Assembly (NCBI GenBank): GCA_949289575.1
Contig: CASEOG010000002.1
Location: 92,590 to 156,589, forward strand
DNA from: an uncultured Spirochaetales bacterium
GTDB lineage: Bacteria > Spirochaetota > Spirochaetia > JAFGXN01
Length of the DNA: 64,000 nucleotides
Direction: 5' to 3'
In this document: piece after piece, positions 16,206-32,785 of the stretch
How the letters are laid out: the number at the start of each line of letters is the position of its first letter
How positions within the stretch are numbered: position 1 is the stretch's first letter
The notes under the pieces: generated by a model
What the model was told of the DNA's origin: nothing
The model's database searches: none
Seen by the model: only the letters and a program-made list of their open reading frames with translations
Translations under genes and position numbers: made by a program

Positions 16206-16215
16206 GTCTGACGGT

Positions 16216-16683: not shown

Positions 16684-17908
16684 ATCGGATCGACGTTTTC
16701 TGTTAAATATGTTTGTCTCTTTGGCAAAATCACCGAGTACATCTTCCGCCGACTCTTTGGCAAAACCGACGAGCGAGGGACAGATTCGGCTTTTGGAGCG
16801 GCTGGCGTCACTGCTTTTCTCCTGGGGTTTGACCCCGGTTCTCCATGAAAACGGGTATCTGACACTTTATCTGCCGCCCTGCGAGGGGAAAGAGAAAACG
16901 GTTGCAATCGGGTTTTTGGCTCACGTCGACACGGCGCCCGATTGCAGCGGAGAGGGCGTTGTTCCCCGAATTGTCAGAAATTACCGCGGAGGGACAGTCA
17001 GACTGGAAAACGGAGCGATACTTTCTCCCGTCGATTTTCCCGATCTTCTCCGGTTTAAAGGAGGCGATTTGATTACATCGTCGGGGGATACGCTTTTGGG
17101 GGCCGATGACAAGGCCGGTGTTGCCATTCTTCTGGGGTTGATCCGCAAAACGGTTTTCGAAAAGACGGAACACGGGCCGCTCTATTTTATGTTTACCACC
17201 GATGAGGAGGTCGGTCGGGGTATGGAAAATCCGCCGCTGGACTCTTTTTCGCCGAAATATGCTTTTACGTTTGACGGCGGGACATTGGGGGAGGCGGAAT
17301 ACGAATGTTTCCATGCCGTATCCGTCACATTCCGGATTACCGGTAAAGTGATTCATCTGGGGCAGGCCAAAGGAAAGCTGACGAATGCGGTAGATGTCGC
17401 TGCCTCTCTGATTGCGGCTCTTCCTCCTGCCGAAAAACCGGAAACAACGGAGGACCGGGAAGGGTATTACTGCCCGATTTCGGCTTCGGGAGAGGTCGGA
17501 CATGCCGTTTTAACGGTTCTTCTGCGCGATTTCGACGAGAAAAAAATAGAAGAAAGAATTGCTTTTTTGCATGATTTGGCTGCCTCGACGGAAAAAAAAT
17601 ATCCCGGGTCCCGGATAGAAATGAGGACGGAGTATCAGTACCGGAACATGAAGTCGATGATTCCTTCTTTTCTGATCGATTTTCTTGTAAAGACAATGGA
17701 AGAAACCGGTATCGAGCCGAGAATCGAATCGGTCAGGGGCGGAACGGACGGTGCCCGTCTGAGTGAAATGGGGATTCCGTGTCCGAATCTGTTTACCGGC
17801 GGTCATAATTTTCACAGCGGACTCGAGTGGCTTGCTTTGCCGGCCTTTTACAAGGCCTTCGAATTGGGCGCGGCGCTGGTCCGAAAAGCGGATTCTTTGC
17901 AAAATTAA
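16670..17908 (+). CDS. pepT: Peptidase T (tripeptide aminopeptidase, M20 family)
   Basis: HVDT, GADDKAGVA and M20 dimerisation-domain pattern. ATG at 16670 is within ORF 16655..17908 and overlaps the upstream stop. Confidence 0.8.
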   Translation: MEITESDRRFLLNMFVSLAKSPSTSSADSLAKPTSEGQIRLLERLASLLFSWGLTPVLHENGYLTLYLPPCEGKEKTVAIGFLAHVDTAPDCSGEGVVPRIVRNYRGGTVRLENGAILSPVDFPDLLRFKGGDLITSSGDTLLGADDKAGVAILLGLIRKTVFEKTEHGPLYFMFTTDEEVGRGMENPPLDSFSPKYAFTFDGGTLGEAEYECFHAVSVTFRITGKVIHLGQAKGKLTNAVDVAASLIAALPPAEKPETTEDREGYYCPISASGEVGHAVLTVLLRDFDEKKIEERIAFLHDLAASTEKKYPGSRIEMRTEYQYRNMKSMIPSFLIDFLVKTMEETGIEPRIESVRGGTDGARLSEMGIPCPNLFTGGHNFHSGLEWLALPAFYKAFELGAALVRKADSLQN

Positions 17909-17964
17909 GACTCTTTCGTAAAATTTATATTGATTTTTTTCTTTTTTGTGATATATTTTAAGTT

Positions 17965-20025
17965 GTGAGAAAAGCTGTTATTTTATTTTTAATTATCTCC
18001 GGTCTCTTTATGGCGTGCGGTGAATTTACGGTTATCGAGGAAACGACGGCACGGAATGCCGGTTTCGTCACCCTTTCCGCTTTTGAAGAGGGGCGCATCC
18101 TGAAACCGGGAGAAAAAATAAAATACGGATTTTCGTTTACGGATGAGGCTGCGAATATTGTTTCGTACCGGATTTCGGTTGTCGATTTGACGGCGGATGA
18201 AACGGTCTTTTCGGGCGAACCGATCCGGCTGCGGGATGCGGCGGAAGAAACCGGAGCCGATACGGAAACATCTTCCGACGGAGACGGAAATCTTTCCGGT
18301 GTGCCGGCTGAGGATCTTTCTTCGGCGGAATCTTTGCCGAACGGAACGGCCGGAGAAGATTACAACGGTGTTGTTCCGGTTCCGGAGACATTGACGGACG
18401 GTTATTACGCTTTTTTCTTTTCTTTTTCGGATTCGCAGGGGAAGGAGGCCGGTTCCGTCAGCGCATCTTTCTTTGTCTCGTCGGCACAGCTGAAAGTTAA
18501 TTCGCTGGGTTCGTACCCCGCGGTGATTTATCCCGGCGGCGAGAGCCTTCTGTACACGGATATAACGGCTCCCGAAGGCTTCGATTCGGATGTGGTGTGG
18601 ACCTGCAACGGCGTCGAGATTTACCGGACCCGTCTGAAAAATATGGCACCTGCGGTCAAATGGCGTGCGCCTGCGGATAAGACGGCAGTCGAAATGACGG
18701 TCGGGGTTTATCCGTGCGATCCTCCCGCGGGACAGACTTTTTCGTTTCCGCCTCCCGTATCGCTTTCTTCGACAATTTTTATATCGGTCAGCCAGCCGGT
18801 TGAAAGCGGTGATTTCCGTCCCGATTCCGAATACGATCTGCTGTTCCATTTCCGCGGAGAGATGAATGATTACTCTCCGTATGCGAAGGGTCGGAAAATT
18901 TCGGTTAAGGGGAATCCTCAGCTGGCTTTCGATTCGAATGTATTCGGATATTCGTTCGGCGACGGTGCCGCTGTTGAGGTAGCTGTCGATGACGAATCGG
19001 TTTTGGGTTACGAAGGGTCGGCTTTTGTTCCGGCGACGGTTGATTTCCGTCTGAATCTGAAATCGCAGGCGTCCGGCAGAATCTTTTCGGTCAGGGATTC
19101 GGCGGACAAAACCGTTTTTTCGCTCTCGAAGAACGCCGGCAGACTGCAGCTGACAGCGGAACTTTCATCCGTTCCTCTGACACAGTCTTTGAATCTTACC
19201 GACTATGTGCTGACCGATTTAACCAGATTGAGTTTTTCCGTTTTTCAGGATACGGTCGGAAAACAGTTTTCTTTCGTCTGGGGACTTGACGGATATTCCG
19301 TATCACGCACGGTCTTCGGTTACGATGCGTTGCGGCGTACTGCGGGAAAAACGTTAACGATCGGCGGCGATAACGGTTATACGGGCGTGATAGACGAACT
19401 CGGTATTTTCCGGATAGGTGACAGGGTTTCCGATTCTCTCTTTGCGGAAGCGGTCCGGAAAAGATTCGGCGGTGACTGTCTGCTGGCGGACGACTTTGTC
19501 GGAGTCTCCTGTATTTCTTCTTACAGAAAATTCCCGTCGGTTCAGCCTTCCGGTATTATAACCGTTGCCGGTGATGATGTTCTCGAAACGGTTGCGTTCG
19601 AAGTTCCGAACGACAGCTTCTCGGTTCAGATTGTCGTGGCGGAGGACCGCTTCTCCGGCGGGTCCGTCGATATGAAGGCGGTGACACTGGATGACAGTCG
19701 GGAGTGGGCTGCGGAAGCGCTGTTTGCCTCTCTTGATCTGAAAAACAGCCGGTTTACTTCGGAGGCCGGGGAATATGAGTATTCGGCAAACGGTTCGATT
19801 TTCGGATTGTACCGTTTGGATTTTCGTAAGACACCCGCAGGCTGGGTTTGTGAATTCGGCGGGAAGGAATTCCCTGTCAATATCCCGAACGGTGCCGCTG
19901 TAGCTGTCTCGGCTTTTGCCGCAACGGGTGAATCGTTTTCTATCGACAGTCTTGTCCTGTTGGGCTCGCTTTCGGGACAGGCAGATCTTTATAAAACACC
20001 TGTTTCACTGAGCTGGCAGCCGTAA
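17965..20025 (+). CDS. Large hypothetical lipoprotein (686 aa)
   Basis: Lipobox LFMAC at the N-terminus. No recognisable catalytic motifs. Ser/Thr/Gly/Asp-rich. Confidence 0.55.
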   Translation: MRKAVILFLIISGLFMACGEFTVIEETTARNAGFVTLSAFEEGRILKPGEKIKYGFSFTDEAANIVSYRISVVDLTADETVFSGEPIRLRDAAEETGADTETSSDGDGNLSGVPAEDLSSAESLPNGTAGEDYNGVVPVPETLTDGYYAFFFSFSDSQGKEAGSVSASFFVSSAQLKVNSLGSYPAVIYPGGESLLYTDITAPEGFDSDVVWTCNGVEIYRTRLKNMAPAVKWRAPADKTAVEMTVGVYPCDPPAGQTFSFPPPVSLSSTIFISVSQPVESGDFRPDSEYDLLFHFRGEMNDYSPYAKGRKISVKGNPQLAFDSNVFGYSFGDGAAVEVAVDDESVLGYEGSAFVPATVDFRLNLKSQASGRIFSVRDSADKTVFSLSKNAGRLQLTAELSSVPLTQSLNLTDYVLTDLTRLSFSVFQDTVGKQFSFVWGLDGYSVSRTVFGYDALRRTAGKTLTIGGDNGYTGVIDELGIFRIGDRVSDSLFAEAVRKRFGGDCLLADDFVGVSCISSYRKFPSVQPSGIITVAGDDVLETVAFEVPNDSFSVQIVVAEDRFSGGSVDMKAVTLDDSREWAAEALFASLDLKNSRFTSEAGEYEYSANGSIFGLYRLDFRKTPAGWVCEFGGKEFPVNIPNGAAVAVSAFAATGESFSIDSLVLLGSLSGQADLYKTPVSLSWQP

Positions 20026-20039
20026 TCGGAGGGAAATTC

Positions 20040-21560
20040 GTGCCGGGTTTCCTTCGGAAGGGGTCGCCTGTTCTTCTGTTCTGTACTCTTTTCTTTTTTT
20101 TCGCTTCCGTTCACGCTTTTTCGCAGACTCTTTATTTTGTATACAGCGATCCGGCAGAAACGGAAGAAGGAAGCACTCTTTCTTACGATAAGAGGAAGGA
20201 GGAAATCAGAGAACTGATTCTTCTCGATTTACCGTTTCTTTTGGGAACGAACCGGTTTCGGGAAGTTTCCGCAGATGCCCCGAAAAGGGAAGCTCTCGAG
20301 AAAGCGATGCTTTCCCGTGTAAAGAGAGCCGACAGCGACGGAGATAACGGAACCGGTACGGAAAACGACGGTCGCGGAGAAACCGGTACCGGAACGGCTG
20401 AAGCAGCCGAATTGCCGTCAGAAGCGGAAGGAGAGAACACCGAAGAACTTTCCGACGGGGGCAGCCTGACGGAACCCGATCGGAATACAACACCGTGTGA
20501 TCCTCTTTTTGCTCTTATCGGTATCGGGGATGCTTCCGCGAAAGATGCTTTTGTTTATATACGCATCAAAAAGGCGGAAATCGGAACGCTGCCCGACGAA
20601 AGATATTTCGGTGAAACGGTATTTGATTTCTTTATGGCCTTCGATAACAGAACGGAGATTTTCCACTCGGAAATTCATGCTGTCGGATTGGCGGCCGCGG
20701 AAGAAGAGGCGATGCGGGAAATTGCTCTCTCGCTGCGGATTTCGCTTAAATCGGTACTGAATGCGCTTTTCGGTAAGGCCGGTTCACCCTATATCGTCAA
20801 TTTTATCAATAATAAAAAGGTTGTTATTGCTCACGGACGGCGTCAGGGAGCTTTTCCCGGAGCTTTTTACCGTATACTGCGGCATGAAATAGGGGAAGAC
20901 GGGGAAGTCGGTGAGCGGATTATCGGTCGGCTTTACGTGGAAAAATGTGAGGAAGACTACAGCTTCTGCCGGATTCTTTATGCCCGCGAACAGCCGGTGC
21001 CGGGAGACGGAATTTCCAAAATTCCCGGATCGGGGGTTCATCAGTCACTCGGATACGATTTGCTGATTTCTTCGCTCCCGGTTACAGAAACAGAGTCCGA
21101 TATTTATGTCAATCATCTGCTCGGATCCCGCTGGGTGGTTAACAGGGAGATGCCTGTTGCCAAGCCTGCTTTCGGGTTTGAAATCCTGACGGGAACCTCT
21201 GCCCGGCTTGATACCGTCGGCATGATGAAGAGCCCCGTCATCGGGAATATCTTTGCGGGAATGCAGGTTGACCGCTTTTTTCACCGCTTCTCTTTCTCGC
21301 CGTTTGTCGATTTGGGATTTGCGTTTACTTCCAACGCAGCGGAAAACAAAAAACCGCTTATGTGGTTTACCTGTAAGGCCGGAGCCCGGTTTCTTTGGAT
21401 GGTTCACGAGCAGGTCGGGGTTTATCTGGAGGGAGGCTATATCTCCTGGCTGGGGATTCCGGGAAAAGAGGCGGTATACGAAGATTCGCAATACATTTAC
21501 TATGCTCCGAACGATTATACCGGAGGATTCGGCGGTGTCGGCGTAACGGTTATGTACTGA
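20040..21560 (+). CDS. Hypothetical secreted protein, possible outer-membrane beta-barrel C-terminus
   Basis: Signal peptide (LLFCTLFFFFASVHAFSQ), acidic low-complexity segment, C-terminal alternating aromatic/Gly pattern ending …GVGVTVMY. Confidence 0.5.
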   Translation: MPGFLRKGSPVLLFCTLFFFFASVHAFSQTLYFVYSDPAETEEGSTLSYDKRKEEIRELILLDLPFLLGTNRFREVSADAPKREALEKAMLSRVKRADSDGDNGTGTENDGRGETGTGTAEAAELPSEAEGENTEELSDGGSLTEPDRNTTPCDPLFALIGIGDASAKDAFVYIRIKKAEIGTLPDERYFGETVFDFFMAFDNRTEIFHSEIHAVGLAAAEEEAMREIALSLRISLKSVLNALFGKAGSPYIVNFINNKKVVIAHGRRQGAFPGAFYRILRHEIGEDGEVGERIIGRLYVEKCEEDYSFCRILYAREQPVPGDGISKIPGSGVHQSLGYDLLISSLPVTETESDIYVNHLLGSRWVVNREMPVAKPAFGFEILTGTSARLDTVGMMKSPVIGNIFAGMQVDRFFHRFSFSPFVDLGFAFTSNAAENKKPLMWFTCKAGARFLWMVHEQVGVYLEGGYISWLGIPGKEAVYEDSQYIYYAPNDYTGGFGGVGVTVMY

Positions 21561-21567
21561 GAGGCGG

Positions 21568-23271
21568 ATGATGAAAAAGAATCGTATAAAAAGAAAACTG
21601 GCGGATAGCGGAATCATTTTTATCGAGAACGAATTCTCGGCTCTCCTTTTCGGAGAAACGGAAAATTGGGAAGAAAAAATCAACGCCGGTTGTCTGGCGG
21701 CGAAAATAACCGCCAAACCTGTAGCCAATTACATTCTCTGCCGTAACGGGGAGAATCCGGAGGCACCGGTAATTCCTTCCTGTTCGGATGACGAAACGGA
21801 CGGAATCGAATACGATGTGGCCGTGATCGGCGGCGGTGTTGTCGGGGCGGCTGTTCTGCGGGAACTCTCGAAATGGAACCTGAAAGCGGTTCTGTTGGAA
21901 AAAGAGTGCGATTTGGCCTTTCACGCGTCCGGCCGGAACGACGGAATGATTCATCCCGGATTTGCGGCAAAACCGGGTTCCAAAAAGGCGTACTACAATG
22001 TCCGCGGGAATGAGATGTACACGCAGCTGACAAAGGATTTAAAAGTTCCTTTTGTCCGAAAAGGTTCGATGATTCTGCTGGCAAATCCGCTGTACCGGCT
22101 GGCGGTGCCTTATATGTTGCGGCGGGCCCAAAAAAACGGCGTTCCCGGATGCCGTTATTTGTCGAAAAAAGAGCTGTACCGCGAAGAGCCGAATTTGGCC
22201 TGCCGGGCGGCCGGGGCTTTTCTGATGCCGACGTCGGGGCAGCTGTCCCCGCAAAAGCTGGTTTGCGCATTGGCCGAAAACGCGGTGCAAAACGGCGCCG
22301 CCGTGCGGTTGCAGACGGCCGCGGTGGATTTCCGTTTCGAGAAAAACCGGATTACGCAGATTGTCACCAACAGAGGCGTGATAAAAGTGCGTGCCGTAGT
22401 CAATGCGGCAGGCGGTTGGGCGGATTGGGTGGCGGCCCGTGCCGGCGACCCGCTGTTTACGCTGCATTTCCGCAAAGGCGAAGATCTCATCCTCGATAAA
22501 AAAAGTTCCGCTTTCATTCGACGGATTTATGCGATGCCGCGGCTTTCGCAGGTGAAAAGCAAATCGAAAGGAGGCGGACTGGTGCCGACGGTCGAAGGGA
22601 ACACCCTTGTCGGTCCCACTGCGCACGAAGTCTGCTCCCGGGACGATTATTCGACGGCCCGCGGTGATGTTCTCGAATTGGAAAAACATATCCGGTTAAA
22701 CGAAAAACTTTCCGACCGTCAAATCATTACCTATTTTGCCGGGATTCGGGCCTGCAGTTACGACGAAGATTTTATTGTCGAACCGTCGAAACGGGTGGAC
22801 AATCTTTTTCATTTGGCGGCCATCCAGTCTCCGGGACTGGCAAGCGCGCCGGCTTTGGCGGAAGAGGCGGTCGATTGGGTCGTCAAATTGCTCTCCCGGG
22901 AAGAACCGGTTTCTCCCAACCCCTCGTTCAACCCCGTTCGCGAAGACAAACGCTACGACTACGATCTTATGAGCGAAGAAGAAAAAGATGCTTTTCTGAA
23001 AGAAAATCCGCTCTACGGCAAAATTGTCTGCCGGTGCGAGCAGGTTTCGGAGGGAGAGATTCGGGATGTTCTCCGTTCGCCGGTTCCGCCGACAACGCTT
23101 GACGGAATACGCCATCGGGCGCGGGCAATGACGGGACGCTGTCACGGAGGCTTTTGTACACCGAAAATCGTCCGCATCATGATTGACGAACGGAAACTGA
23201 AGAGTGCCGATATCGTCAAAAAGAACCGTTTCTCGCCGCTCTTTTTCGGCGAAACGAAGGAGGAGCAATGA
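21568..23271 (+). CDS. GlpA-like FAD-dependent oxidoreductase with C-terminal BFD-like [2Fe-2S] domain (anaerobic glycerol-3-phosphate dehydrogenase-like)
   Basis: Rossmann dinucleotide fold DVAVIGGGVVGAAV, SGRNDGMIHPG motif, C-terminal CRCEQVSEGEI…GRCHGGFC BFD-type cysteines. Carries an N-terminal extension of about 75 aa. Confidence 0.7.
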   Translation: MMKKNRIKRKLADSGIIFIENEFSALLFGETENWEEKINAGCLAAKITAKPVANYILCRNGENPEAPVIPSCSDDETDGIEYDVAVIGGGVVGAAVLRELSKWNLKAVLLEKECDLAFHASGRNDGMIHPGFAAKPGSKKAYYNVRGNEMYTQLTKDLKVPFVRKGSMILLANPLYRLAVPYMLRRAQKNGVPGCRYLSKKELYREEPNLACRAAGAFLMPTSGQLSPQKLVCALAENAVQNGAAVRLQTAAVDFRFEKNRITQIVTNRGVIKVRAVVNAAGGWADWVAARAGDPLFTLHFRKGEDLILDKKSSAFIRRIYAMPRLSQVKSKSKGGGLVPTVEGNTLVGPTAHEVCSRDDYSTARGDVLELEKHIRLNEKLSDRQIITYFAGIRACSYDEDFIVEPSKRVDNLFHLAAIQSPGLASAPALAEEAVDWVVKLLSREEPVSPNPSFNPVREDKRYDYDLMSEEEKDAFLKENPLYGKIVCRCEQVSEGEIRDVLRSPVPPTTLDGIRHRARAMTGRCHGGFCTPKIVRIMIDERKLKSADIVKKNRFSPLFFGETKEEQ

Positions 23272-24929
23272 GATACGGCGAATGCGATGTGGCGGTGATC
23301 GGCGGAGGACCGGCCGGACTGGCGGCCGCAACGGCTGCGGCAACGGAAGGGGCATCGGTTTGTCTCTTCGAGCGCGAGGAAAAGACCGGCGGAATTCTGA
23401 AACAGTGTATTCATGACGGATTCGGTCTGATTCGGTACGGGGAAAAACTCTCCGGTCCCGAATATGCGTATCGGGAATGGTTGCGCTTTCGGGAAAGCGG
23501 GGCGGAGCTGCGGCTCGAAACATTCATGACGGCAGTCGAAAAAGAAGGGAACGGCTTTCTGCTGACATTGACCGACTCGCAGGGGATTTTGAAATATCGG
23601 GCAAAGACACTTGTGGTTGCCTGCGGCTGCCGCGAACGGACCGACCGCCAGGTCGGCATCCACGGCTTTCGGCCGGCCGGAATTTTTACGGCGGGTCAGG
23701 CGCAGGCTTATATCAACCTGGACGGGCGCATGCCGGCGCGCCGTTGTCTCATTTTGGGCAGCGGCGATATCGGGTTGATTATGGCGCGGCGGTTGACGCT
23801 GGAAGGAGCGGAAGTGGTCGGCGTGTACGAAATCAAGCACGAACCGGCGGGACTCAGTCGGAATATCGCCCAGTGTCTGACCGATTTTTCGATTCCGCTT
23901 CATTTGGGATGTACGGTGACGGAAGTGGCCGGTCGGGATCGGGTTGAAGGAGTTTATACGGTCAGGGTCGACAAAAATCTGGTTCCGATTGAGGGAACGG
24001 AAGAATTTGTTCCGTGCGACACGCTGATTCTCTCGGTCGGACTGATTCCGGAAAACGATGCTTTTGAGGCTCTCGGTTGGGAAATCGATCCGGTGACGTC
24101 GGGACCCCGTGTCGATTCGTGCGGAATGACCTCGGTGCCGGGTGTTTTTTCCTGCGGCAATTCGCTTCATGTCAACGATCTGGTCGATTATGTTTCCGAA
24201 AGCGGCGAAACGGCCGGAAAGGCGGCCGCCGCCCGGTGCCGCGCATCGGAGAGCCTTCCGGGACGGCCGATTCCCGTTCGGGCCGGATCCGGAGTCGGAG
24301 CGCTGGTTCCGCAGTCGGCGGCGGCCGAAGGGAGCGCCAACCCGGTCGACTTCTTTTTCCGCAGCCGGCAAACGCTTGCATCCTGCCGTTTATCGGTAAC
24401 GGCCGACGGAAAAGAGATTTTCAGCCGCCGCTACGAAACGGTGCGGCCGCCCGAAATGGAAAAGGTGACGCTCGATTTGTCGCTGCTGCCGCCCGGAACC
24501 GGGGGGCTGCTCTTTTCGCTTTTGCCCGATGAGTGCGGCAGTGTCGAATCCGAAACCGCCGGGTACGAAATCATTGACGAGACGGTCTGTATCGAATGTC
24601 CGCGCGGCTGCCGTTTGCGAATCGGGCGGCGGCCGGACGGATCAATCGCCGTTTTCGGCAACAGCTGCCCGAAAGGGAAACTGTACGGGGAGCGGGAAAC
24701 GGAGAATCCGCACCGCGTTTTGACAACCACCGTGAAAACCGTTTTCGGCGACTGTCCGCGGTTGGCGGTTCGCACCGACGGCCCCATTCCGCGGTCGGCG
24801 TTAAAAGATGCGCAGCGGCTGACGGACGCGGTGACGGTTCGGGAAGCGGTTCTTCCCGGGACGGTTTTGATACAGAATTTCGGCGGATGGGGCGTCAATC
24901 TGATTGCCGCATCCGAATGTCATCCGTAA
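23268..24929 (+). CDS. NAD(P)/FAD-dependent (pyridine nucleotide-disulfide type) oxidoreductase fused to a C-terminal DUF1667-like Cys-rich domain
   Basis: Two Rossmann motifs (VAVIGGGPAGLAAA and LILGSGDIGL). C-terminal CIECPRGCRLRI…GNSCPKG resembles DUF1667. ATGA overlap with the upstream gene. Confidence 0.65.
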   Translation: MRYGECDVAVIGGGPAGLAAATAAATEGASVCLFEREEKTGGILKQCIHDGFGLIRYGEKLSGPEYAYREWLRFRESGAELRLETFMTAVEKEGNGFLLTLTDSQGILKYRAKTLVVACGCRERTDRQVGIHGFRPAGIFTAGQAQAYINLDGRMPARRCLILGSGDIGLIMARRLTLEGAEVVGVYEIKHEPAGLSRNIAQCLTDFSIPLHLGCTVTEVAGRDRVEGVYTVRVDKNLVPIEGTEEFVPCDTLILSVGLIPENDAFEALGWEIDPVTSGPRVDSCGMTSVPGVFSCGNSLHVNDLVDYVSESGETAGKAAAARCRASESLPGRPIPVRAGSGVGALVPQSAAAEGSANPVDFFFRSRQTLASCRLSVTADGKEIFSRRYETVRPPEMEKVTLDLSLLPPGTGGLLFSLLPDECGSVESETAGYEIIDETVCIECPRGCRLRIGRRPDGSIAVFGNSCPKGKLYGERETENPHRVLTTTVKTVFGDCPRLAVRTDGPIPRSALKDAQRLTDAVTVREAVLPGTVLIQNFGGWGVNLIAASECHP

Positions 24930-24939
24930 GGAGGTTAAG

Positions 24940-26682
24940 ATGAGTCGCAAAGAAGAGTTCATGCCGCCGTGGTCCGATGAGGCCCCCGAAGCCGGCAGTT
25001 ACCGTTCCGTTTTTAAGTGGGGCGATCCGTCCGGATTCAAACATCCCAACCGGAAACTTTACCGCTACATGAAAGAACAGTTTCGGCTGACCGATGACGA
25101 TTTCCGCGTGCGCGTCAGGGAAGGACGGGAGAAAGTCTCTCTTGCCGGGATGCCCTCCCGGCTCGAGACGAAACACCGTACCGCTTTGGCGGCGATTGTC
25201 GGCGACGAAAATGCGGCCGATGACGATTACAGTCGGGTTTTTTACTCGGTGGGAAAAACGCAGGAAGAGGCGTTTGAATTGAGAGAAGGCGTCGTGAAGC
25301 ATGCGGCCGATCTGATTCTGCATCCGCGCAATACGGATGATGTGGTTGCTGTCGTCCGCTACTGCGACGACCACCGGATTCCTCTTTATGTTTACGGAGG
25401 CGGCTCTTCCGTCAACTTCGGATTTCGGCCGATGGCGGGCGGAGTCATGGTCGTGATGAATACCCACATGAACCGGCTGCTGGAAGTGAACGAACTGAAC
25501 AAAACGGCGACCGTCGAAGCCGGGATGCTCGGCCCCGCCTACGAATCGGCTTTGAACCGGGCAAAAGAGCTTTTCGGAACAAAACGAAACTATACAAACG
25601 GTCACTTTCCCCAGTCGTTCGAATACTCGAGTGTCGGCGGCTGGGTGGCAACACTCGGGTCGGGGCAGGAATCTTCTTATTACGGTGATGCTTACGATTT
25701 GGTGATGGGCGTGGAGATGGTGACGCCGCGCGGAGTGATCAATACGCATGTTTATCCGGCAACCGCAACGGGGCCGAAAATCCTCGATATGATTAAAGGC
25801 AGCGAAGGAACGTACGGTATCATCACACGGCTGACAATGAAGATTTTTTATCTGAGTGACGAAACGAAATACGGCGGTGCCTACGTCTTTAAAGACTGGG
25901 AGACGGCGGTGACGGTCTGTCGGGAAATTTCCCAAGGGGAATTCGGTTTTCCGGGAGTTTTGCGAATCTCCGATGAAGAAGAGACCGATATGGGGCTGCG
26001 GCTTTACGGTGTTGCGGGAACGCCGCTCGATACAATTATGAAACTGTTCGGTTTCAGAGAAATGAAGCGGTGTCTGATGCTTTTCCGCACCTGCGGTGAA
26101 AAACATTTTTCAAAAAATGTTTACAGGCAGGTTAAAAAAATCTGCCGCCGTCACGGCGGACTGCCGCTGACATCGTATCCGGTTAAAAAATGGGATCACG
26201 GCCGTTACCTCGATCCTTATTTGAGAGAGGACTTAAACGATTTCGGAATGGTGCTCGATACAACCGAGTGCGGTGTTACATGGGAGAATCTTCACCGGGT
26301 TCATGCCGAAGTGCGCCGTTTTGTCAAAAGCCGTCCTCTGACCGGTTGTCTGACGCATGCGTCTCACTTCTATCCCGAAGGGACCAATCTTTATTTTATT
26401 TTTTTCTGCAAAGTCAAAGATATGGAAGATTATATTTCCCTTCAAAACGGAATTTTCGAAGCCATTCAGAGAGCGGGCGGATCGCTTTCCCATCATCACG
26501 GTGTCGGCAGAATGATTGCTCCGTGGATGGAAGAGCATCTCGGCAAAAACGAAACCGATGTGCTGAAACTGCTGAAAAATCATTTCGATCCCAACGGAAT
26601 TTTCAATCCGGGGGGACAGATGGGGCTGGATTACCGTCCGGGTGATTTGAACGGGCGTGACTGGCGGGGAATCCGACGCTGA
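24940..26682 (+). CDS. FAD-linked oxidase resembling alkyldihydroxyacetonephosphate synthase (AGPS)
   Basis: AGGAGG RBS then ATG at 24940. N-terminal extension with FKWGDPSGF and LAGMPS blocks, FAD-binding PCMH domain (PLYVYGGGSSVNFG) and HHHGVG near the C-terminus as in the eukaryotic AGPS HHH loop. Judged by eye against remembered AGPS sequence. Confidence 0.6.
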   Translation: MSRKEEFMPPWSDEAPEAGSYRSVFKWGDPSGFKHPNRKLYRYMKEQFRLTDDDFRVRVREGREKVSLAGMPSRLETKHRTALAAIVGDENAADDDYSRVFYSVGKTQEEAFELREGVVKHAADLILHPRNTDDVVAVVRYCDDHRIPLYVYGGGSSVNFGFRPMAGGVMVVMNTHMNRLLEVNELNKTATVEAGMLGPAYESALNRAKELFGTKRNYTNGHFPQSFEYSSVGGWVATLGSGQESSYYGDAYDLVMGVEMVTPRGVINTHVYPATATGPKILDMIKGSEGTYGIITRLTMKIFYLSDETKYGGAYVFKDWETAVTVCREISQGEFGFPGVLRISDEEETDMGLRLYGVAGTPLDTIMKLFGFREMKRCLMLFRTCGEKHFSKNVYRQVKKICRRHGGLPLTSYPVKKWDHGRYLDPYLREDLNDFGMVLDTTECGVTWENLHRVHAEVRRFVKSRPLTGCLTHASHFYPEGTNLYFIFFCKVKDMEDYISLQNGIFEAIQRAGGSLSHHHGVGRMIAPWMEEHLGKNETDVLKLLKNHFDPNGIFNPGGQMGLDYRPGDLNGRDWRGIRR

Positions 26683-26692
26683 GTTTCTCTGC

Positions 26693-26721
26693 TTGACAAA
26701 ACAATGATTAATTTGTATAAT
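26693..26721 (+). promoter_or_regulatory. Perfect consensus sigma70 promoter (TTGACA-17 nt-TATAAT)
   Basis: TTGACA at 26693-26698 and TATAAT at 26716-26721 with exactly 17-nt spacing, followed by an AAAGGAG RBS (26731-26737). Confidence 0.6.
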
Positions 26722-26743
26722 CGGAAAAATAAAGGAGATAAGT

Positions 26744-26938
26744 ATGTCTAAAGCCAATCGTGGAAAAGGAACTTTTGAAAGATATAACCGCGGAAAAGGA
26801 GTTTGTCCGGTTTGTGCCCGTACAAATATTAAGGCAACTTACGAAGTGGAAGTCGGCGAAAAGAAAGTGACCGTTTGCAAGCAGTGCAAAGCGGGGCTGG
26901 CTCACGGCAAGCTTCAGGATAAAGTTGCGGCTCTGTAA
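26744..26938 (+). CDS. Small (64 aa) basic zinc-ribbon protein, function unknown
   Basis: CPVC…(21 aa)…CKQC four-cysteine zinc-ribbon arrangement. Flanked by a consensus promoter, strong RBS and intrinsic terminator. Confidence 0.6.
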   Translation: MSKANRGKGTFERYNRGKGVCPVCARTNIKATYEVEVGEKKVTVCKQCKAGLAHGKLQDKVAAL

Positions 26939-26958
26939 CGGGTTGCCCGTACACAGAA

Positions 26959-26988
26959 ACCCCGGTCCGACGGCCGGGGTTTTTATTT
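26959..26988 (+). terminator. Rho-independent terminator (CCCCGG…CCGGGG stem plus T-tract)
   Basis: aaCCCCGGtccgacggCCGGGGtttttatttt directly after the small gene stop. Confidence 0.7.
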
Positions 26989-27081: not shown

Positions 27082-29157
27082 ATGAAACGGTTTGGGATTT
27101 TTGTGTTTGCATTATTGTTCTTATCGGGATACCTGTTTGCCCAGGAAAATGAGACGGCAGACGGGGCCGATGCGCCGACGGTTGAAGTAGCCGATCCTGC
27201 CGATGAACCGGCGGCCGACGATGTTGTCCGCGTGTTTGAAGGCGGGAAAAAACTGAAAGGGGTGAAGGTTTACGAGAACCGGATATACAGAGACAGTCTG
27301 AGAGGAATTTTCGGCAATTATATTGCCTCCTGGGTTATCGCCGGAGATATCAAAGACGGGCTTGACAAAACGGTAACCAATGAGGATGTGGTCGCTCTTA
27401 TGGACCGGCTCAGAGAAAAAGATGAAATCGAGTCGCTTGATTTCTATTACACATTTGATGCCAAAGATCGGGTGACTGTTCATGTTGTTCTGATTGATAA
27501 TCCCGGTTTCCGTGATTTCGAGGGAACCGTTACTCTCGACCGGATTGACTTCTACTGCCGCAACAATTTCTTTGTCAACCGCCGGGCGCTCGGTGATGCC
27601 GTTAATCTGGATAAGAAAGGAACCTACACCTCGGAGGAAATCAAGGAAGCCGTTGCGCGTATCGATGATTTATATGTTTTTAACGATATTTCCTGGGGTC
27701 TCAGAGAAGAGAAAAAGGATAAGGACGGGAATCCCGTTTATGCGCTTCAGATTATTGTTTCCGAGTACGGCGGAAGCAAGGAAGTCCGTACAAAAGAAAT
27801 TACCGTTTCCAAAATTCAGTTCCTCGGAAACTGGTATACCCAAAACTGGGTTTATTTGAGAGAGCTTGATTTCAAGGCCGGTGATACCGTTACGGTCGAA
27901 CAGCTTGATGCCGCTGCCCAGAAACTTATGAATTTGGGTGTTTGTACATCGGTAGACTGGGGTATTATTTATGATGCGGACGGTAATGTTATTCTTGTTT
28001 TTGTCACAAAAGATAAACTGACTCTGCTGCCCCAGTTTGACCTGGCGTTCGGTTCCGATCAGTTGAGACTCGGTCTCGGTTTCTGGGATAAAAACTTTTT
28101 GGGAACAAAAAGCACCATTAATTTCAAATTTACATTAAAGGACCTGATGCCGACTTTCAGTCTGGCTTTCTCGGTTCCGAAGATTGCCAATACTTACTTC
28201 AACTATGAGATGTCCGTCAGCTATGACTCGACCAATAAGTATACGGAAACAAGAGGTACGGCAGGAGAGGCTGTCGAAAAGCGGACGAAAGGTTACCGGG
28301 AAAACACGGTGAATACTTATGCAAAAGTCAGCTACTCGCTGGAATTGGCCGATTCCAAGCAGATTATGTGGTATCAGTCTTTTGCTTTTACGGTCGGATA
28401 TGACTTTATTCAGTCTCAGAAGTCCGACAGCTCCCGCTACTTGGGAATGCCCGAAAAATTTGCTACCGGTTGGCTGAATCTTGCCGAAGATTTCGAGTAT
28501 GACGAAGATTTCATCGGTTTCGGTCATTATATGAACTTCGATTTCAATTACAGTTTTAACAACTACCGTCGTGACGGCGGATACCGCGATAAAGGTATCA
28601 GTTTCAGCATTACGGATTCGATCGGTCTGCCGATTGCCCTTGACGGTTATATGACAAAAAACAGGGATGACGGATCGGCGATTACCGAAAAGATTTACAA
28701 TAAAATCGATACGAATTTCACATTCCATTATATCCCTGTTCAGTGGTTCGAATTCAAAGGTTATGTCGCAACGGGATATACCACGACCAATATCGTGGCC
28801 AAGCAGTTCTATTTCGGAAACCGTTCGCTTGCCAGAAATATTCCGACCAATATGCAGGGAAGCGGTAAAGGTTACTATAGAGGTAATTTCGACGTCTGTT
28901 TTACCCCGCCGATTCCTTATGTCAACAAAATCGTGATTATCGAATTGGACCTGTTTGCCGATGTCGGTAATTACGGAAACGACTACAAAAAGATGTGGTC
29001 GGAGATTCCTATCTGGTCGACGGGTATCGGATTTAACATTTACGTGCCTTTCTTTGAAGGTTTGTATTTGGGACTGGACCTTTCCTGGGGACCGAACAAC
29101 ATCAAGGAAAAGGACGGAAAACCGTTGTTTAACTTCGGTGTCAGCAAATTTTACTGA
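27082..29157 (+). CDS. Omp85/BamA-family-like outer-membrane protein
   Basis: Signal peptide, POTRA-like N-terminal region, long beta-strand-rich region with alternating aromatic residues, C-terminal …FNFGVSKFY with terminal aromatic typical of OM beta-barrels. Confidence 0.5.
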   Translation: MKRFGIFVFALLFLSGYLFAQENETADGADAPTVEVADPADEPAADDVVRVFEGGKKLKGVKVYENRIYRDSLRGIFGNYIASWVIAGDIKDGLDKTVTNEDVVALMDRLREKDEIESLDFYYTFDAKDRVTVHVVLIDNPGFRDFEGTVTLDRIDFYCRNNFFVNRRALGDAVNLDKKGTYTSEEIKEAVARIDDLYVFNDISWGLREEKKDKDGNPVYALQIIVSEYGGSKEVRTKEITVSKIQFLGNWYTQNWVYLRELDFKAGDTVTVEQLDAAAQKLMNLGVCTSVDWGIIYDADGNVILVFVTKDKLTLLPQFDLAFGSDQLRLGLGFWDKNFLGTKSTINFKFTLKDLMPTFSLAFSVPKIANTYFNYEMSVSYDSTNKYTETRGTAGEAVEKRTKGYRENTVNTYAKVSYSLELADSKQIMWYQSFAFTVGYDFIQSQKSDSSRYLGMPEKFATGWLNLAEDFEYDEDFIGFGHYMNFDFNYSFNNYRRDGGYRDKGISFSITDSIGLPIALDGYMTKNRDDGSAITEKIYNKIDTNFTFHYIPVQWFEFKGYVATGYTTTNIVAKQFYFGNRSLARNIPTNMQGSGKGYYRGNFDVCFTPPIPYVNKIVIIELDLFADVGNYGNDYKKMWSEIPIWSTGIGFNIYVPFFEGLYLGLDLSWGPNNIKEKDGKPLFNFGVSKFY

Positions 29158-29164
29158 TGATTTT

Positions 29165-29190
29165 GCGGCAGCCTTACGGCTGCCGTTTTT
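29165..29190 (+). terminator. Rho-independent terminator (GCGGCAGCC-ttac-GGCTGCCG plus TTTTT)
   Basis: Perfect 8-9-bp GC-rich hairpin followed by a T-run, 8 nt after the Omp85-like stop. Confidence 0.75.
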
Positions 29191-29204
29191 ATATGGGTAG
29201 GGTT

Positions 29205-29867
29205 ATGGAGGAATCGACGCTGTTTTTCAAGTCGACATTCGAGCGTCTGTCCGGAGAAAAGCAGGAAAAGATACGGAGTGCTGCCATTAAAATTTTTGCG
29301 GAGAACGGTTATACGAACGCAAAGATGAAGATGATTGCCGATGAAGCCGGAATTTGTGTCGGATCATTGTATCAGTATTTCGAAACAAAGGAAGAAGTCT
29401 TTCTGGATGCGGTTCAGACAATGAAAAAAGAGCTGGAATCGGTACTGCTGCCTTTGGCTGCCGGTGACGGACCTTTCTTCGAAAAAGTGGAAACTGTTTT
29501 GAGAACCCTTCAGCGGTTTTCGCTCCGTCATCCTTATGTGAATAAGATTTACAACGAAATGACATCGGAGGGGAATTTTCAGCTTTCCATGCGGATAGCC
29601 GAAGAGATTGAAAGCGTTTCGGCGTCCTGTTACCGGACCATTATCGAAACTGCCAAAAAACAGGAATCATTTCCGCAGGCAATCGATGAAAGAATGTTTG
29701 CTTTTTGTCTGGATAACCTCTTTATGATGATGCAGTTTTCTTATTCGTGCGAGTATTACAAGGAAAGAAAGAAGATTTATCTGGGGGAAGAAAAAAGCGG
29801 TGATGACGAATTTGTTATCGCTCAAATGATGAGGTTTATCAGGGGTGCGTTCTGTTTTTCCGGATAA
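29205..29867 (+). CDS. TetR/AcrR-family transcriptional regulator
   Basis: N-terminal HTH block IRSAAIKIFAENGYTNAKMKMIADEAGICVGSLYQYFETKEEVF typical of TetR. Start chosen after the terminator hairpin. The ORF-track start at 29157 overlaps the terminator. Confidence 0.75.
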   Translation: MEESTLFFKSTFERLSGEKQEKIRSAAIKIFAENGYTNAKMKMIADEAGICVGSLYQYFETKEEVFLDAVQTMKKELESVLLPLAAGDGPFFEKVETVLRTLQRFSLRHPYVNKIYNEMTSEGNFQLSMRIAEEIESVSASCYRTIIETAKKQESFPQAIDERMFAFCLDNLFMMMQFSYSCEYYKERKKIYLGEEKSGDDEFVIAQMMRFIRGAFCFSG

Positions 29868-29967
29868 ATTTTAAAAAAAAACTTGCATTATCGGAGAAAC
29901 GGGGGTACAATATAATAAATGAACCGCAATTCATTTATTACAATTTTTTAACAGTAGGAGAATGATT

Positions 29968-31461
29968 ATGTCAAATCGACCCGGTTATGCGATACAGGAG
30001 TATCACGACACTCAAAAAGTAATGGATCAGCTGAATGCACTGATTCGTCAGCCGATTCGCGGTATTAAAAAAGAAGCGATGGATAAATATTTGGAATATT
30101 ACGAAACCAAATGTCAGAAGTCGAAGGCGATGATTCGGGAAGCGATGAATTACATCCCCGGCGGGGTTCAGCACAATCTCGCTTTTAACTATCCGTTCCC
30201 GCTTGTTTTTACAAAGGCGGAGGGTGCCTATCTGTATGATATCGACGGTAACCGGTATATCGACTTTTTGCAGGCCGGCGGTCCGACGGTGCTCGGATCG
30301 AATCCTCCGAAAATCCGGGAGAAAGTTAAAGAACTGCTGGATACCTGCGGTCCCGTGACCGGACTCTTTCACGAATATGAGCTGAAATTGGCAAAACTGG
30401 TTTGCGAAACTTATCCCGGTGTCGAATTTTTCCGCGCTTTGAACTCGGGAACGGAAGCCTGTATGGCCGCCGCCCGTATCGCACGCTGCGCAACGGGTCA
30501 CAAAAACATTGTGAAAATGGGAGGAGCCTACCACGGTTGGTCGGATCAGCTTTCTTACGGTTTGCGTGTTCCCGGACGCCGCAGCTTCGGATCGCACGGA
30601 ATTCCGAAAAATATCTTTAAATATACGCAGGAGTTCTTTCCGAACGATATCAAGTCCCTGAAACGTGTGTTGCGGAGAAATGTTCTGCGCGGCGGAACGG
30701 CAGCCGTTTATATGGAGCCGGTCGGACCCGAAAGCGGAACACGTCCGTTGGATTACGATTTCCCCAAAAAGGTTCAGGCTTTGTGTAAAAAATACGGAGC
30801 ATTACTGATTTTCGATGAAGTTGTGACGGGATTCCGCCTGGGGCCGGACGGCGCACAGGGCTATTTCGGAATTGTCCCCGACCTGACAATTTTCGGAAAA
30901 GTGATTGCCGGCGGGTATCCTTCCGCGGGTGCCATTGCCGGTCTTAATAAGTGGAGACCCTATCTTGCCGGCGGTTTGGATACCAAAAAAGAGGGCGAAA
31001 AGAAAGTCCATAAGGCTCATGTCGGCGGTACGTTGGCGGCCAATCCGCTTTCCTCTCTGGCCGGTTACTACACTGTCAAAGAGATTATCGATACCAATGC
31101 GTGCGAACGGGCCGGGGCTATGGGAGACCGTCTGACAAAAGGTCTTCAGGAGCTGATTAAAAAATACAATCTGCCGTTTGTGGCTTATAACCAGGGTTCA
31201 ATCTGCCACCTGGAGACGGTCGGTACAATGCTCTTCTCGATCAGCCTTCTGAAGTTCTGGAAGATTCCTCATGTTTTAAAAGAAACGACACGGCGTCAGA
31301 AAATGATGCAGAAGATGGGAGCCGCTTACATGGCGGAAGGAATCGTGACTCTTGCCGGAAGCCGGATGTATACCTCCGCTGCCGATACGGAAGAGATTAT
31401 TGACGATGCTCTGGCCCGTTTCGAAAGAGTCTTCAAAAATATCGCCGAAGGTGAAGAATAA
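29968..31461 (+). CDS. Class III PLP aminotransferase, glutamate-1-semialdehyde-2,1-aminomutase (HemL)-like paralog
   Basis: Fold-type I class III pattern with PLP lysine in FGKVIAGGYP (HemL-like GK[VI]IGGG[LY]P) and DEVVTGFR. ATG at 29968 has better RBS spacing than 29962. Confidence 0.7.
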   Translation: MSNRPGYAIQEYHDTQKVMDQLNALIRQPIRGIKKEAMDKYLEYYETKCQKSKAMIREAMNYIPGGVQHNLAFNYPFPLVFTKAEGAYLYDIDGNRYIDFLQAGGPTVLGSNPPKIREKVKELLDTCGPVTGLFHEYELKLAKLVCETYPGVEFFRALNSGTEACMAAARIARCATGHKNIVKMGGAYHGWSDQLSYGLRVPGRRSFGSHGIPKNIFKYTQEFFPNDIKSLKRVLRRNVLRGGTAAVYMEPVGPESGTRPLDYDFPKKVQALCKKYGALLIFDEVVTGFRLGPDGAQGYFGIVPDLTIFGKVIAGGYPSAGAIAGLNKWRPYLAGGLDTKKEGEKKVHKAHVGGTLAANPLSSLAGYYTVKEIIDTNACERAGAMGDRLTKGLQELIKKYNLPFVAYNQGSICHLETVGTMLFSISLLKFWKIPHVLKETTRRQKMMQKMGAAYMAEGIVTLAGSRMYTSAADTEEIIDDALARFERVFKNIAEGEE

Positions 31462-31476
31462 GAGAGAGGTAGCGAG

Positions 31477-32112
31477 ATGACACCGGAAGAAGCCCGAAAG
31501 ATCGTTGTCGATGCCGGAAAGCGTCTGTTGAGAGAAGGCCTCGTTGCCCGAACATGGGGAAATATCAGTCAGCGAATCGACGGAAAACATATTGCCATCA
31601 CACCGAGCGGACGTCCGTATGAAACTCTGAAGCCGGAGGATATTCCGATACTGAATATCGAAGATATGACGTGGGAAGGTCCGTACAAGCCGTCCGGAGA
31701 AAAGAAACTTCATGCGGCTGTTTATGCCGGAGATGAGAATATCCGGGCTGTGATTCATACGCATCAGATGAATGCATCAACCTGTGCCGCCGCCCGGAAG
31801 GCCGTTCCGGTTGCGGAAGAGTTTCGACCGATTCTCGGTGACGAGATTCTGTGTGCGCCGTACGGGCTTCCCGGTTCCAAGAAACTGACCAAAGGGACTG
31901 CCGCTGCCGTTTTGGGGCGGCCGGCAGCCTTTATGGCCAATCACGGAGCCGTTTGCGCCGCTGCCGATATGGAATGTGCTTTCGGGATTGCGGCTGCTCT
32001 CGAAAAGGCGTGCGGGAAATATATTCGCGATTCGTTTTCCCGTGTTTCGGGCGGAGAAGAGTGGAGTTCCGATGCGGTACGCAGTCATTATGTAAAGGAT
32101 CAGAGTGTATGA
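31477..32112 (+). CDS. Class II aldolase/adducin-family protein (FucA/AraD-like), metal ligands intact
   Basis: PSGE (Glu ligand), HTH (two His ligands) and NHGAV (third His) motifs in canonical spacing. Confidence 0.75.
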   Translation: MTPEEARKIVVDAGKRLLREGLVARTWGNISQRIDGKHIAITPSGRPYETLKPEDIPILNIEDMTWEGPYKPSGEKKLHAAVYAGDENIRAVIHTHQMNASTCAAARKAVPVAEEFRPILGDEILCAPYGLPGSKKLTKGTAAAVLGRPAAFMANHGAVCAAADMECAFGIAAALEKACGKYIRDSFSRVSGGEEWSSDAVRSHYVKDQSV

Positions 32113-32732: not shown

Positions 32733-32785
32733 GTCCGATAATCCGCGGGAGACAGTTCCTGCGGATTTTTATAAAAGGAAAGTCT

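Follow-up and report, generated by a model that had tools for sequence, protein, structure and literature searches.

Why should a bacterium of a strictly anaerobic lineage carry a homologue of AGPS, the eukaryotic alkyl-dihydroxyacetone-phosphate (alkyl-DHAP) synthase of ether-lipid formation, next to the genes of a glycerol-3-phosphate (G3P) dehydrogenase-like complex? The question is raised by positions 21568 to 26682 of a 64,000 nucleotide stretch of DNA from an uncultured Spirochaetales bacterium, referred to here as the window. This region is filled by three open reading frames (ORFs), A, B and C, all on the forward strand, of which C is the AGPS homologue. The answer favoured here is that the genes form an ether-lipid module of the AGPS type. 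The flavin dehydrogenase encoded by A and B would handle the redox step between G3P and dihydroxyacetone phosphate (DHAP), and the whole would give an oxygen-independent route to 1-O-alkyl glycerolipids. The chances for and against this answer are judged to be about even.

The way in which anaerobic bacteria make saturated, non-isoprenoid 1-O-alkyl glycerol lipids is understood in part only. Among these lipids are the mono- and dialkyl glycerol ethers found in sulfate reducers and, possibly, the precursors of the branched glycerol dialkyl glycerol tetraethers used as palaeoclimate markers. To our knowledge, ester reduction of the PlsA/Ger type is the sole demonstrated anaerobic route. The presence of an AGPS-like gene in anaerobes is not in itself new, because two lipid-gene surveys mention 'distant homologs' of AGPS there, presumed to be biosynthetic, without test or pathway context (PMC13159169, PMC11868695). 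The locus gives such homologues a pathway context of G3P dehydrogenase (G3PDH)-type flavoproteins, a dedicated FGGY kinase subfamily and a FadR-like regulator. In the searchable literature there is no description of this wiring to two kinds of G3PDH-type flavoprotein, the FGGY subfamily and the regulator, nor of the BON-bearing GlpTk subfamily described below or of the closeness to eukaryotic AGPS.

The products of genes A, B and C

The product of gene C is an AGPS-family flavoenzyme and is predicted to be alkyl-DHAP synthase-like. Its Pfam matches, FAD_binding_4 (PF01565, 4e-30) and FAD-oxidase_C (PF02913, 3e-32), correspond to a VAO/PCMH-type fold with a C-terminal cap. The motifs from which the original prediction had recognised AGPS by eye (KWG…GF, LxGM, the PLYVYGGGSSVNFG flavin adenine dinucleotide (FAD) block and HHHGVG) are all in the translation, the first two as KWGDPSGF and LAGM. 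In a phmmer search of PDB sequences, Dictyostelium AGPS (8.5e-64, 219 bits) and guinea-pig AGPS (1e-57, 199 bits) stand well ahead of the best non-AGPS chain (4e-24, 88 bits) and of D-lactate dehydrogenase (4.5e-20), in keeping with the prediction. The identities to the two enzymes are 31% and 32%, respectively, and those enzymes are 34% identical to each other; C is therefore nearly as close to each eukaryotic AGPS as the two are mutually.

An AlphaFold (AF2) model of C has a mean local confidence (pLDDT) of 74 and a predicted template modelling score (pTM) of 0.78. The first 37 Foldseek matches to this model are all AGPS, with TM scores of 0.72-0.81 except for three shorter ones (0.68-0.71). 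The aligned columns number approximately 575-590 for AGPS (approximately 500-595 for the top 37 overall) against approximately 505 for D-lactate dehydrogenase; since the AGPS alignments are the longer, the AGPS-specific N-terminal region appears to be matched in the model. The sequence alignment with AGPS starts only at residue 100. The segment past 'LAGM' appears more polar than the gating helix of mammalian AGPS. With the TIGR00387 model for GlcD, C reaches only 139 bits (cutoff 568), and the match is confined to the FAD domain. A place among the GlcD and D-lactate dehydrogenases, the outcome that the original prediction had set against its own assignment, is thus ruled out by sequence, motif and fold scores.

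The residues on which AGPS depends are also in place. In the Dictyostelium enzyme R352, R447 and Y508 are important by mutagenesis (PMC3509576). The PDB search alignment places R352 (guinea-pig R419) at R342 of C, in 'VLRISD', and R447 at R429, in 'YLRED'. Y508 (guinea-pig Y578) falls on Y485, in 'TNLYFIF', and this column is the one altered in the 4bca Y578F chain. The HHH loop is H518-H520, in 'SLSHHHGVG'. Where AGPS has this loop, the D-lactate dehydrogenase/GlcD metal site has EHG. All six residues, including the HHH loop and the catalytic tyrosine to which the original prediction had drawn attention, are invariant in an alignment of 20 family sequences (A1, 55-88% identity).

Genes A and B are predicted to encode a flavin/iron-sulfur G3P dehydrogenase-like complex of the GlpTk type, which may oxidise G3P. 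The type is named for a trio of Thermococcus kodakarensis proteins, a G3PDH with NOX and DUF1667/MOX partners, that has been reconstituted as a soluble complex; the trio is also present in Thermotoga maritima and in Clostridium perfringens, and its three parts are fused in Giardia (10.1101/2024.02.29.582781). In A, a DAO domain (PF01266, 3e-59) covers residues 83-437, and a BFD-like [2Fe-2S] domain (PF04324, Fer2_BFD, 4e-10) with the motif CRC...CHGGFC covers residues 486-538. The best NCBIfam model is type-2 G3P oxidase (220 bits, below its cutoff of 460; the profile library used has no GlpTk-specific model) and the best PDB match is Mycoplasma GlpO (4x9m, 2e-29). The fusion of an oxidoreductase to DUF1667 in B, as originally proposed, is real: Pyr_redox_2 (5e-29, residues 7-299, followed by its C-terminal domain) is joined to DUF1667 (2e-18, residues 468-548) carrying the cysteine motif CIECPRGC...C (CxxCxxxC...C). 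NOX and DUF1667 are likewise fused in an 88% identical relative (L087), and are separate genes in most relatives, the more distant ones (L085, L088, L089, L093).

Residues 1-82 of A form a degenerate BON-like extension. This extra N-terminus of approximately 80 residues is kept in all of the AGPS-linked homologues aligned, and 14 of 17 such N-termini match Pfam BON (best 8e-7). The best 120 homologues of A are 517-629 amino acids long, nearly all of them 560-610, with a query cover of 92-100% except in three, and several have a precomputed BON match. The BON fold is associated with phospholipid binding. The AGPS-linked A proteins form a distinct, BON-bearing subfamily.

The three genes are tightly and translationally coupled. 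The start codon of B overlaps the stop codon of A by 4 nt (ATGA). C begins 11 nt past the stop codon of B (TAA, 24927-24929), the last two bases of which are shared with the perfect Shine-Dalgarno sequence of C, 5 nt from the ATG at 24940. This ATG is also the start chosen by gene callers on four identical metagenome contigs (580 amino acids). Because the Shine-Dalgarno sequence precedes it and the gene callers agree, C starts there and has no overlap with B; the overlap of the two ORFs is an artefact of the first in-frame TTG, at 24904. The gene order first described, with the AGPS-like gene directly after and overlapping the GlpA-like flavoprotein, therefore has to be amended in both respects: C follows B rather than A, and the overlap is between A and B.

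Conserved neighbours of the AGPS-like gene

The family of C is large, with 5690 proteins at E <= 1e-10 among the candidates scored, and bears the JGI name alkyldihydroxyacetonephosphate synthase. Homologues that are 46-60% identical are found in at least 592 stretches of species-representative genomes. They occur in Spirochaetota, Desulfobacterota, Clostridia, Anaerolineae, Thermotogae, Caldisericota, Actinomycetota and Myxococcota. The gene neighbourhoods of 80 of these loci were compared by ORF clustering and tblastn, the counts being taken from tblastn; named isolates among them are Clostridium sediminicola (L050) and Desulfoluna spongiiphila (L037). In 52 of the 80 the homologue is well flanked, with at least 4 kb upstream and at least 2.5 kb downstream, and partners were counted within 7 kb of it.

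A G3PDH-type gene is present in 39 of these 52 loci. In 30 a gene of the GlpD type (DAO + DAO_C) is present and in 9 the GlpTk-type trio. An FGGY kinase is present in 29 and a GntR/FadR-type regulator (GntR + FCD/FadR_C) in 25. At least one of the three kinds of partner is found in 42 loci, and the remaining 10 have none. The linkage of C to G3PDH-type genes is kept across Spirochaetota, Bacillota, Thermotogota, Caldisericota, Desulfobacterota and Chloroflexota, and this recurrence shows that it is not accidental to the present genome. The use of a GlpD-type partner in some loci and a GlpTk-type partner in others looks like displacement between two distantly related types of dehydrogenase. With 324 bits, the GlpD-type partner narrowly misses the cutoff of the G3PDH model (360).

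Both types of dehydrogenase are present at one locus. In a 3.7 Mb genome (GCA_942491575.1; L089, 6527-14204) the genes for a GntR/FadR regulator, a GlpD-like protein, the AGPS-like protein, GlpTk-type A, NOX and DUF1667 stand in one row, which suggests separate oxidising and reducing partners around the AGPS-like gene. Looked at from the other side, four BON-bearing homologues of A were sampled, and the AGPS-like gene comes right after DUF1667 in three of them and not in the fourth (L095).

The FGGY kinases near homologues of C belong to one subfamily, with the signature IDxGTQSxR...PGWAEQDPE and 41-60% identity to the kinase of locus L008. Their identification as GlpK is rejected, at 142 bits against a cutoff of 590. 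The nearest model is XylB (255 bits, below its cutoff of 380), and the kinase is approximately equidistant from all of the solved FGGY kinases, whether gluconate, AI-2, xylulose or glycerol kinases. The GntR regulator carries a FadR_C-type domain. No transporter recurs across the 80 loci.

Genes with a connection to lipids are neighbours in some of the loci. Beta-oxidation genes are near the homologue of C in several of those from Desulfobacterota and Myxococcota. In a metagenome-assembled genome (MAG) of the Polyangiales (L070, 4827-13457), two acyl-CoA dehydrogenase genes are followed by the AGPS-like gene and, on the same strand, a short-chain dehydrogenase/reductase (SDR) gene, with a PlsC-type acyltransferase gene (PF01553) on the opposite strand. 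This set is similar to the trio that GNPAT, AGPS and an SDR reductase form in eukaryotes. At another locus (L009) a gene for an NmrA/epimerase-type NAD(P)H-binding protein abuts the start of the AGPS-like gene. The AGPS-like proteins of L070 and of a second Myxococcota MAG (L073) are 60-65% identical to G3PDH-linked members of the family, and for this reason they likely have the same activity as those members. One acyl-CoA dehydrogenase of the L070/L073 loci, of 594 amino acids with an Acyl-CoA_dh_C tail, brings to mind the ACAD domain found in animal ACAD10/11, which a preprint of 2025-26 has tied to ether-lipid salvage.

Surroundings of the locus

The features of the locus and its flanks are listed in Table 1. 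The genes U1 and U2 precede A, with 7 nt between U2 and A. Transcription of U1-U2-A-B-C as a single transcript may occur, since promoter-like sites precede U1 and the first strong terminator-like hairpin past C lies downstream of the TP_0214-family ORF; a consensus scan finds no strong promoter directly before A. The stretch from 26693 to 26984 is a compact stand-alone small-protein unit of promoter, 64-amino-acid ORF and hairpin. Its promoter, a perfect sigma-70 consensus (26693-26721, TTGACA-17 nt-TATAAT, 12/12), begins 11 nt past the stop codon of C and would serve the TP_0214-family ORF. This ORF, of a Treponema family, and the closest homologues, which are from spirochaetes, point to a Treponema-like spirochaete as the source of the window.

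Table 1. Positions of genes and signals at the locus, numbered from the first base of the window
Feature	Positions	Strand	Length	Description
Promoter-like sites	17896-17957			Before U1; consensus scan
U1	17965-20025	+		Lipoprotein-like signal (…LFMAC); no Pfam match
U2	20040-21560	+		Signal peptide, FlgT-like middle domain, beta-rich C-terminus ending …TVMY; no Pfam match
Gene A	21568-23271	+	567 aa	DAO + BFD-like [2Fe-2S] (Pfam); GlpTk-type FAD-dependent G3P dehydrogenase-like subunit (predicted)
Gene B	23268-24929	+	553 aa	NOX-type flavoprotein fused to DUF1667 (Pfam)
Shine-Dalgarno sequence of gene C	24928-24934	+		AAGGAGG; read directly from the sequence
Gene C	24940-26682	+	580 aa	AGPS-family (alkyl-DHAP synthase-like) flavoenzyme
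Small ORF, Treponema family TP_0214 (PF27208)	26744-26938	+	64 aa	Called as a gene on identical contigs
Intrinsic-terminator-like hairpin	26955-26984	+		13-bp stem, 7 GC pairs, T run; first strong one past C; consensus scan

A functional tie of U1 and U2 to the three genes is doubtful. Weak homologues of the two are found upstream of A in L085 and L087, and their homologues are confined to close spirochaete relatives, in which they are syntenic with A-B-C. Only 16 homologues of U2 were found, all of them close. The model of U2 has a pLDDT of 59, with the middle domain as its confidently modelled part, and its best fold match is to the flagellar protein FlgT / LPHT ring at a TM score of approximately 0.2. 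A role for U1 and U2 in FadL-like lipid uptake across the outer membrane was considered and finds no support on these grounds, U2 being FlgT-like if anything.

Further upstream on the same strand (14647-17908) are genes for a GDPD glycerophosphodiester phosphodiesterase (14647-15399), a 270-amino-acid protein with no Pfam match, a phosphotransferase system (PTS) EIIA-2 domain protein and an M20 peptidase. The first of these enzymes would free G3P from phospholipid head groups; this may be relevant to A and B, or its position may be a coincidence. Downstream, a cluster at 29157-34858 encodes a TetR regulator, a class-III aminotransferase, two class-II aldolase/adducin-domain proteins and a flavoprotein combining old yellow enzyme (OYE) and Pyr_redox_2 domains, an architecture like that of 2,4-dienoyl-CoA reductase; the cluster is kept in L087. 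At 47166-50588, on the minus strand, FAD_binding_5 and molybdopterin-binding subunits of the xanthine dehydrogenase family adjoin genes of sugar-nucleotide modification (DegT aminotransferase, Polysacc_synt_2 dehydratase). The G+C content, approximately 0.50 in the window, peaks at 0.63 between 4001 and 6000, with a strongly negative AT skew, over a gene like that for heptaprenyl-diphosphate synthase component I and an ApbE gene.

Several other functions were looked for in the window. An FGGY kinase, a GntR regulator, a DUF362 protein and a second G3PDH were searched for and none was found, and there is also no acyl/alkyl-DHAP reductase of the eukaryotic pathway. The sole NAD_binding_4 match was rejected as a fatty-acyl reductase, being a secondary match inside a Polysacc_synt_2 sugar dehydratase. 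The Pfam domains of PlsA/PlsR (BcrAD/BadFG-type ATPase, HGD-D-type) are matched neither in A, B and C nor in the other window proteins scanned, and in this the locus is distinct from the PlsA/PlsR pathway, as had been supposed.

Readings of the module and known systems

In the favoured reading, the oxidised FAD of C would capture a 1-O-substituted DHAP, in the form of its C1 carbanion, as an N5 adduct, after which the substituent at C1 would be expelled and another would add. In the canonical AGPS reaction, acyl-DHAP and a fatty alcohol would in this way give 1-O-alkyl-DHAP and a fatty acid. The A/B complex would take the glycerol backbone from the oxidation level of G3P to that of DHAP, which is the one needed for AGPS chemistry, or back; its parts would be the FAD and [2Fe-2S] cluster of A, the cysteine-rich module DUF1667 and a NOX flavoprotein of NAD(P)H type. 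Most likely it would work on the lipid itself, interconverting 1-acyl- or 1-alkyl-G3P and 1-acyl- or 1-alkyl-DHAP, and the making of free DHAP is less likely. It would then stand in place of the SDR-type acyl/alkyl-DHAP reductase of the eukaryotic pathway and of the Myxococcota homologue locus. The gene order of L089 could represent the full path, with the GlpD-like protein oxidising, the AGPS-like protein exchanging and the NAD(P)H-linked GlpTk complex reducing. In this scheme we infer which substrates are used and in which direction, how the electrons travel, and that the dehydrogenase acts on a lipid rather than on free G3P.

A link of the module to lipids is suggested by the contexts of L070 and L009, the beta-oxidation neighbours, the FadR_C-type domain, the BON extension, the lack of a recurring transporter and a precedent for the kinase. 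Prokaryotic ACAD10-type kinases phosphorylate 1-O-alkylglycerol and are present in 55% of AGPS-bearing organisms (PMC13596139), so the pairing of a kinase with AGPS has a precedent, and the FGGY kinase of the clusters could be an analogue of the ACAD10-type enzyme.

Several points weigh against this reading. The FGGY family is known to us for soluble sugars and polyols and not for lipids, and we know of no G3P dehydrogenase that accepts 1-acyl- or 1-alkyl-G3P. The N-terminus of A in the window is degenerate and, taken alone, has no Pfam BON match. Neither an acyl-DHAP acyltransferase nor a fatty-acyl reductase, both of which the original prediction had named as genes to be sought, was found among the proteins scanned in the 64-kb window, and neither an acyltransferase nor a fatty-acyl reductase recurs beside the homologues of C in the 80 loci. 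The SDR and acyltransferase context is that of one locus, L070, with the NAD(P)H-binding gene of L009 in addition; L073 (6170-9248), whose protein is 81% identical to that of L070, shares the acyl-CoA dehydrogenases only. The literature searched has no biochemical or lipid data for any member of the bacterial clade of C. In E. coli, the setting of the distantly analogous genes ygcU and ygcE points to a substrate that is soluble and to a genuine redox reaction. Finally, labelling excluded DHAP and long-chain alcohols as precursors of plasmalogens in several anaerobes, in work that did not address saturated alkyl ethers (PMC9702350).

It is possible that the same enzymes run in the opposite sense, in the salvage or breakdown of ether lipids. 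The FGGY kinase, where present, would phosphorylate 1-O-alkylglycerol, the G3PDH-type enzyme would give alkyl-DHAP, and C would release the fatty alcohol. Either water or a fatty acid would take its place, so that DHAP or acyl-DHAP would result. Such an anaerobic 'etherase' would start with an oxidation beside the ether bond. A kinase, a dehydrogenase, an enzyme cleaving C1-O and a GntR/FadR regulator do look catabolic together, and every conserved partner would have a role. The ping-pong mechanism of AGPS does break the C1-O bond (PMC3509576), beta-oxidation genes adjoin in several loci, and the absence of a conserved transporter fits a membrane-permeant substrate. Canonical GlpD passes electrons to quinone, and GlpD-type partners that did likewise would favour oxidation. 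Set against this, a reverse or hydrolytic physiology of AGPS is not documented in the literature searched, the lipid-active FGGY kinase that it calls for is not known to us, the window has neither kinase nor regulator, the neighbours of the AGPS-like gene in L070 point to synthesis, and with U2 not FadL-like there is no evident uptake system. Salvage is considered unlikely, if the most credible of the alternatives. In its specific form, with the kinase, G3PDH-type, AGPS-like and FadR-type module as a system for oxygen-independent ether-lipid cleavage, in which 1-O-alkylglycerol or its phosphate would be oxidised at C2 and an AGPS-type etherase would release fatty alcohol and DHAP, the proposal is rather unlikely. 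If true, alkylglycerol monooxygenase would gain its first counterpart in anaerobic metabolism, which could account for the turnover of alkyl glycerol ethers in guts and sediments.

Read literally, the original prediction has A and B oxidise free G3P to supply DHAP; an acyltransferase encoded elsewhere would then make acyl-DHAP, a reductase encoded elsewhere the fatty alcohol, and C would form alkyl-DHAP. The link of C to a G3PDH-type gene that it implies recurs in 39 of the 52 loci, all of the hallmarks of AGPS are in C, the GDPD gene that would release G3P is 6 kb upstream on the same strand, and A belongs to a family that includes the characterised G3P dehydrogenase complex of Thermococcus (10.1101/2024.02.29.582781). 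The remainder of the scheme has fared less well: the two further enzymes neither are in the window nor recur near homologues, and the recurring kinase, which is not GlpK, and the GntR/FadR regulator are left unexplained. The GlpD-type partners fall below the G3PDH cutoff and the AGPS-linked A proteins are a subfamily of their own. Glycolysis gives DHAP in any case, and a dedicated supplier would explain the conserved linkage poorly. Like ether cleavage, free-DHAP supply is held to be rather unlikely. A soluble 1-substituted glycerol or polyol, such as a glycerol glycoside, a glycerophosphodiester or 2,3-dihydroxypropanesulfonate, might instead be phosphorylated and oxidised to the 2-keto form before its C1 group is expelled, or C might be a true dehydrogenase. 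The equidistance of the kinase from gluconate, AI-2, xylulose and glycerol kinases would fit this, as would the regulator, GntR/FCD proteins being typical of small-acid and sugar catabolism. So would the ygc cluster, where ygcU, with HHHG and the tyrosine kept, is accompanied by ygcE, two transporter genes of the major facilitator superfamily (MFS), electron transfer flavoprotein (ETF) genes and fixCX-like genes, and locus L096, with a CUT2-type ATP-binding cassette (ABC) transporter, an SDR and another FGGY kinase immediately upstream. Against this, C scores higher with eukaryotic AGPS (209-224 bits) than with YgcU (151 bits) and appears to have the AGPS N-terminal domain that YgcU lacks, and across the 80 loci it is lipid-metabolism neighbours that recur and not a transporter. 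A soluble substrate is judged quite improbable. The least probable reading is that the neighbours share no pathway, A and B being an ordinary anaerobic G3P dehydrogenase for the catabolism of glycerol or phospholipid head groups and C being unrelated. The A-NOX-DUF1667 trio does occur without an AGPS-like gene in L095, and 10 of the 52 well-flanked loci have no partner at all; opposed to these are the translational coupling of A, B and C and a linkage that extends over six phyla and two types of dehydrogenase, both in one operon in L089.

Coming back to the favoured ether-lipid module, it makes the formation or turnover of saturated alkyl glycerol ethers by anaerobes directly testable, with defined substrates and enzymes. 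If the dehydrogenase acts on lysolipids, or if the module is an etherase, it would represent a new type of step in glycerolipid biochemistry, and the reading of agps matches in metagenomes would change.

Among known systems, PlsA/PlsR and Ger form plasmalogens or alkyl ethers in anaerobes by reduction of an ester bond (PMC9702350, PMC13159169). Like the module proposed for C, they lead to sn-1 ether lipids in anaerobes without the need for oxygen, and they differ from it in belonging to unrelated families and in their chemistry, which is ester reduction rather than the flavin-mediated exchange at the DHAP level proposed here. In Myxococcus xanthus the AGPS homologue MXAN_1676 is genetically tied to ether-lipid formation (PMC13012113, PMC11868695). 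The comparison with C is made through Myxococcota MAG homologues only, which are 49-51% identical to the query family and lie beside the SDR and PlsC-type acyltransferase; M. xanthus, however, lives aerobically, and no G3PDH-type gene is part of the operon there. The deep phylogeny of AGPS carries insufficient signal (PMC13012113).

The E. coli K-12 ygc cluster (L092, NC_000913.3 2892657-2903374) also pairs an AGPS-like protein, YgcU, with an FGGY kinase, YgcE. YgcU is 29% identical to C and keeps HHHG, the tyrosine and the arginine; YgcE is 31% identical (239 bits) to the FGGY kinase that is clustered with AGPS-like genes in anaerobes. The differences are the missing N-terminal domain of YgcU and the partners, which are ETF (ygcQR), ygcNO (fixCX-like), ygcP (GlpP-like antiterminator), ygcW (SDR) and the two MFS transporters, with no G3PDH-type gene. 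The literature searched on the bacterial module, anaerobic ether cleavage, ygcU/ygcE and Rv2251/glpD1 has nothing on function.

The predicted A/B complex keeps the trio of the GlpTk complex and its order, from DAO with a BFD-like [2Fe-2S] tail through NOX to DUF1667. It differs in the fusion of the last two in the window and in the extra BON-like N-terminal segment of A, common to the AGPS-linked homologues; no glycerol kinase or facilitator adjoins it, and the AGPS-like gene C comes next instead. With eukaryotic AGPS (EC 2.5.1.26; 2uuu from Dictyostelium, 4bby from guinea pig), C shares the two-domain VAO-type fold, apparently with the N-terminal region matched in the model, the two arginines and the tyrosine validated by mutagenesis, and the HHH loop. 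It is set apart as a cytosolic, bacterial protein of a strictly anaerobic lineage, without peroxisomal targeting, and by its partner, which is a G3P-dehydrogenase-type flavin/iron-sulfur complex where those of the eukaryotic enzyme are GNPAT, FAR and an SDR reductase.

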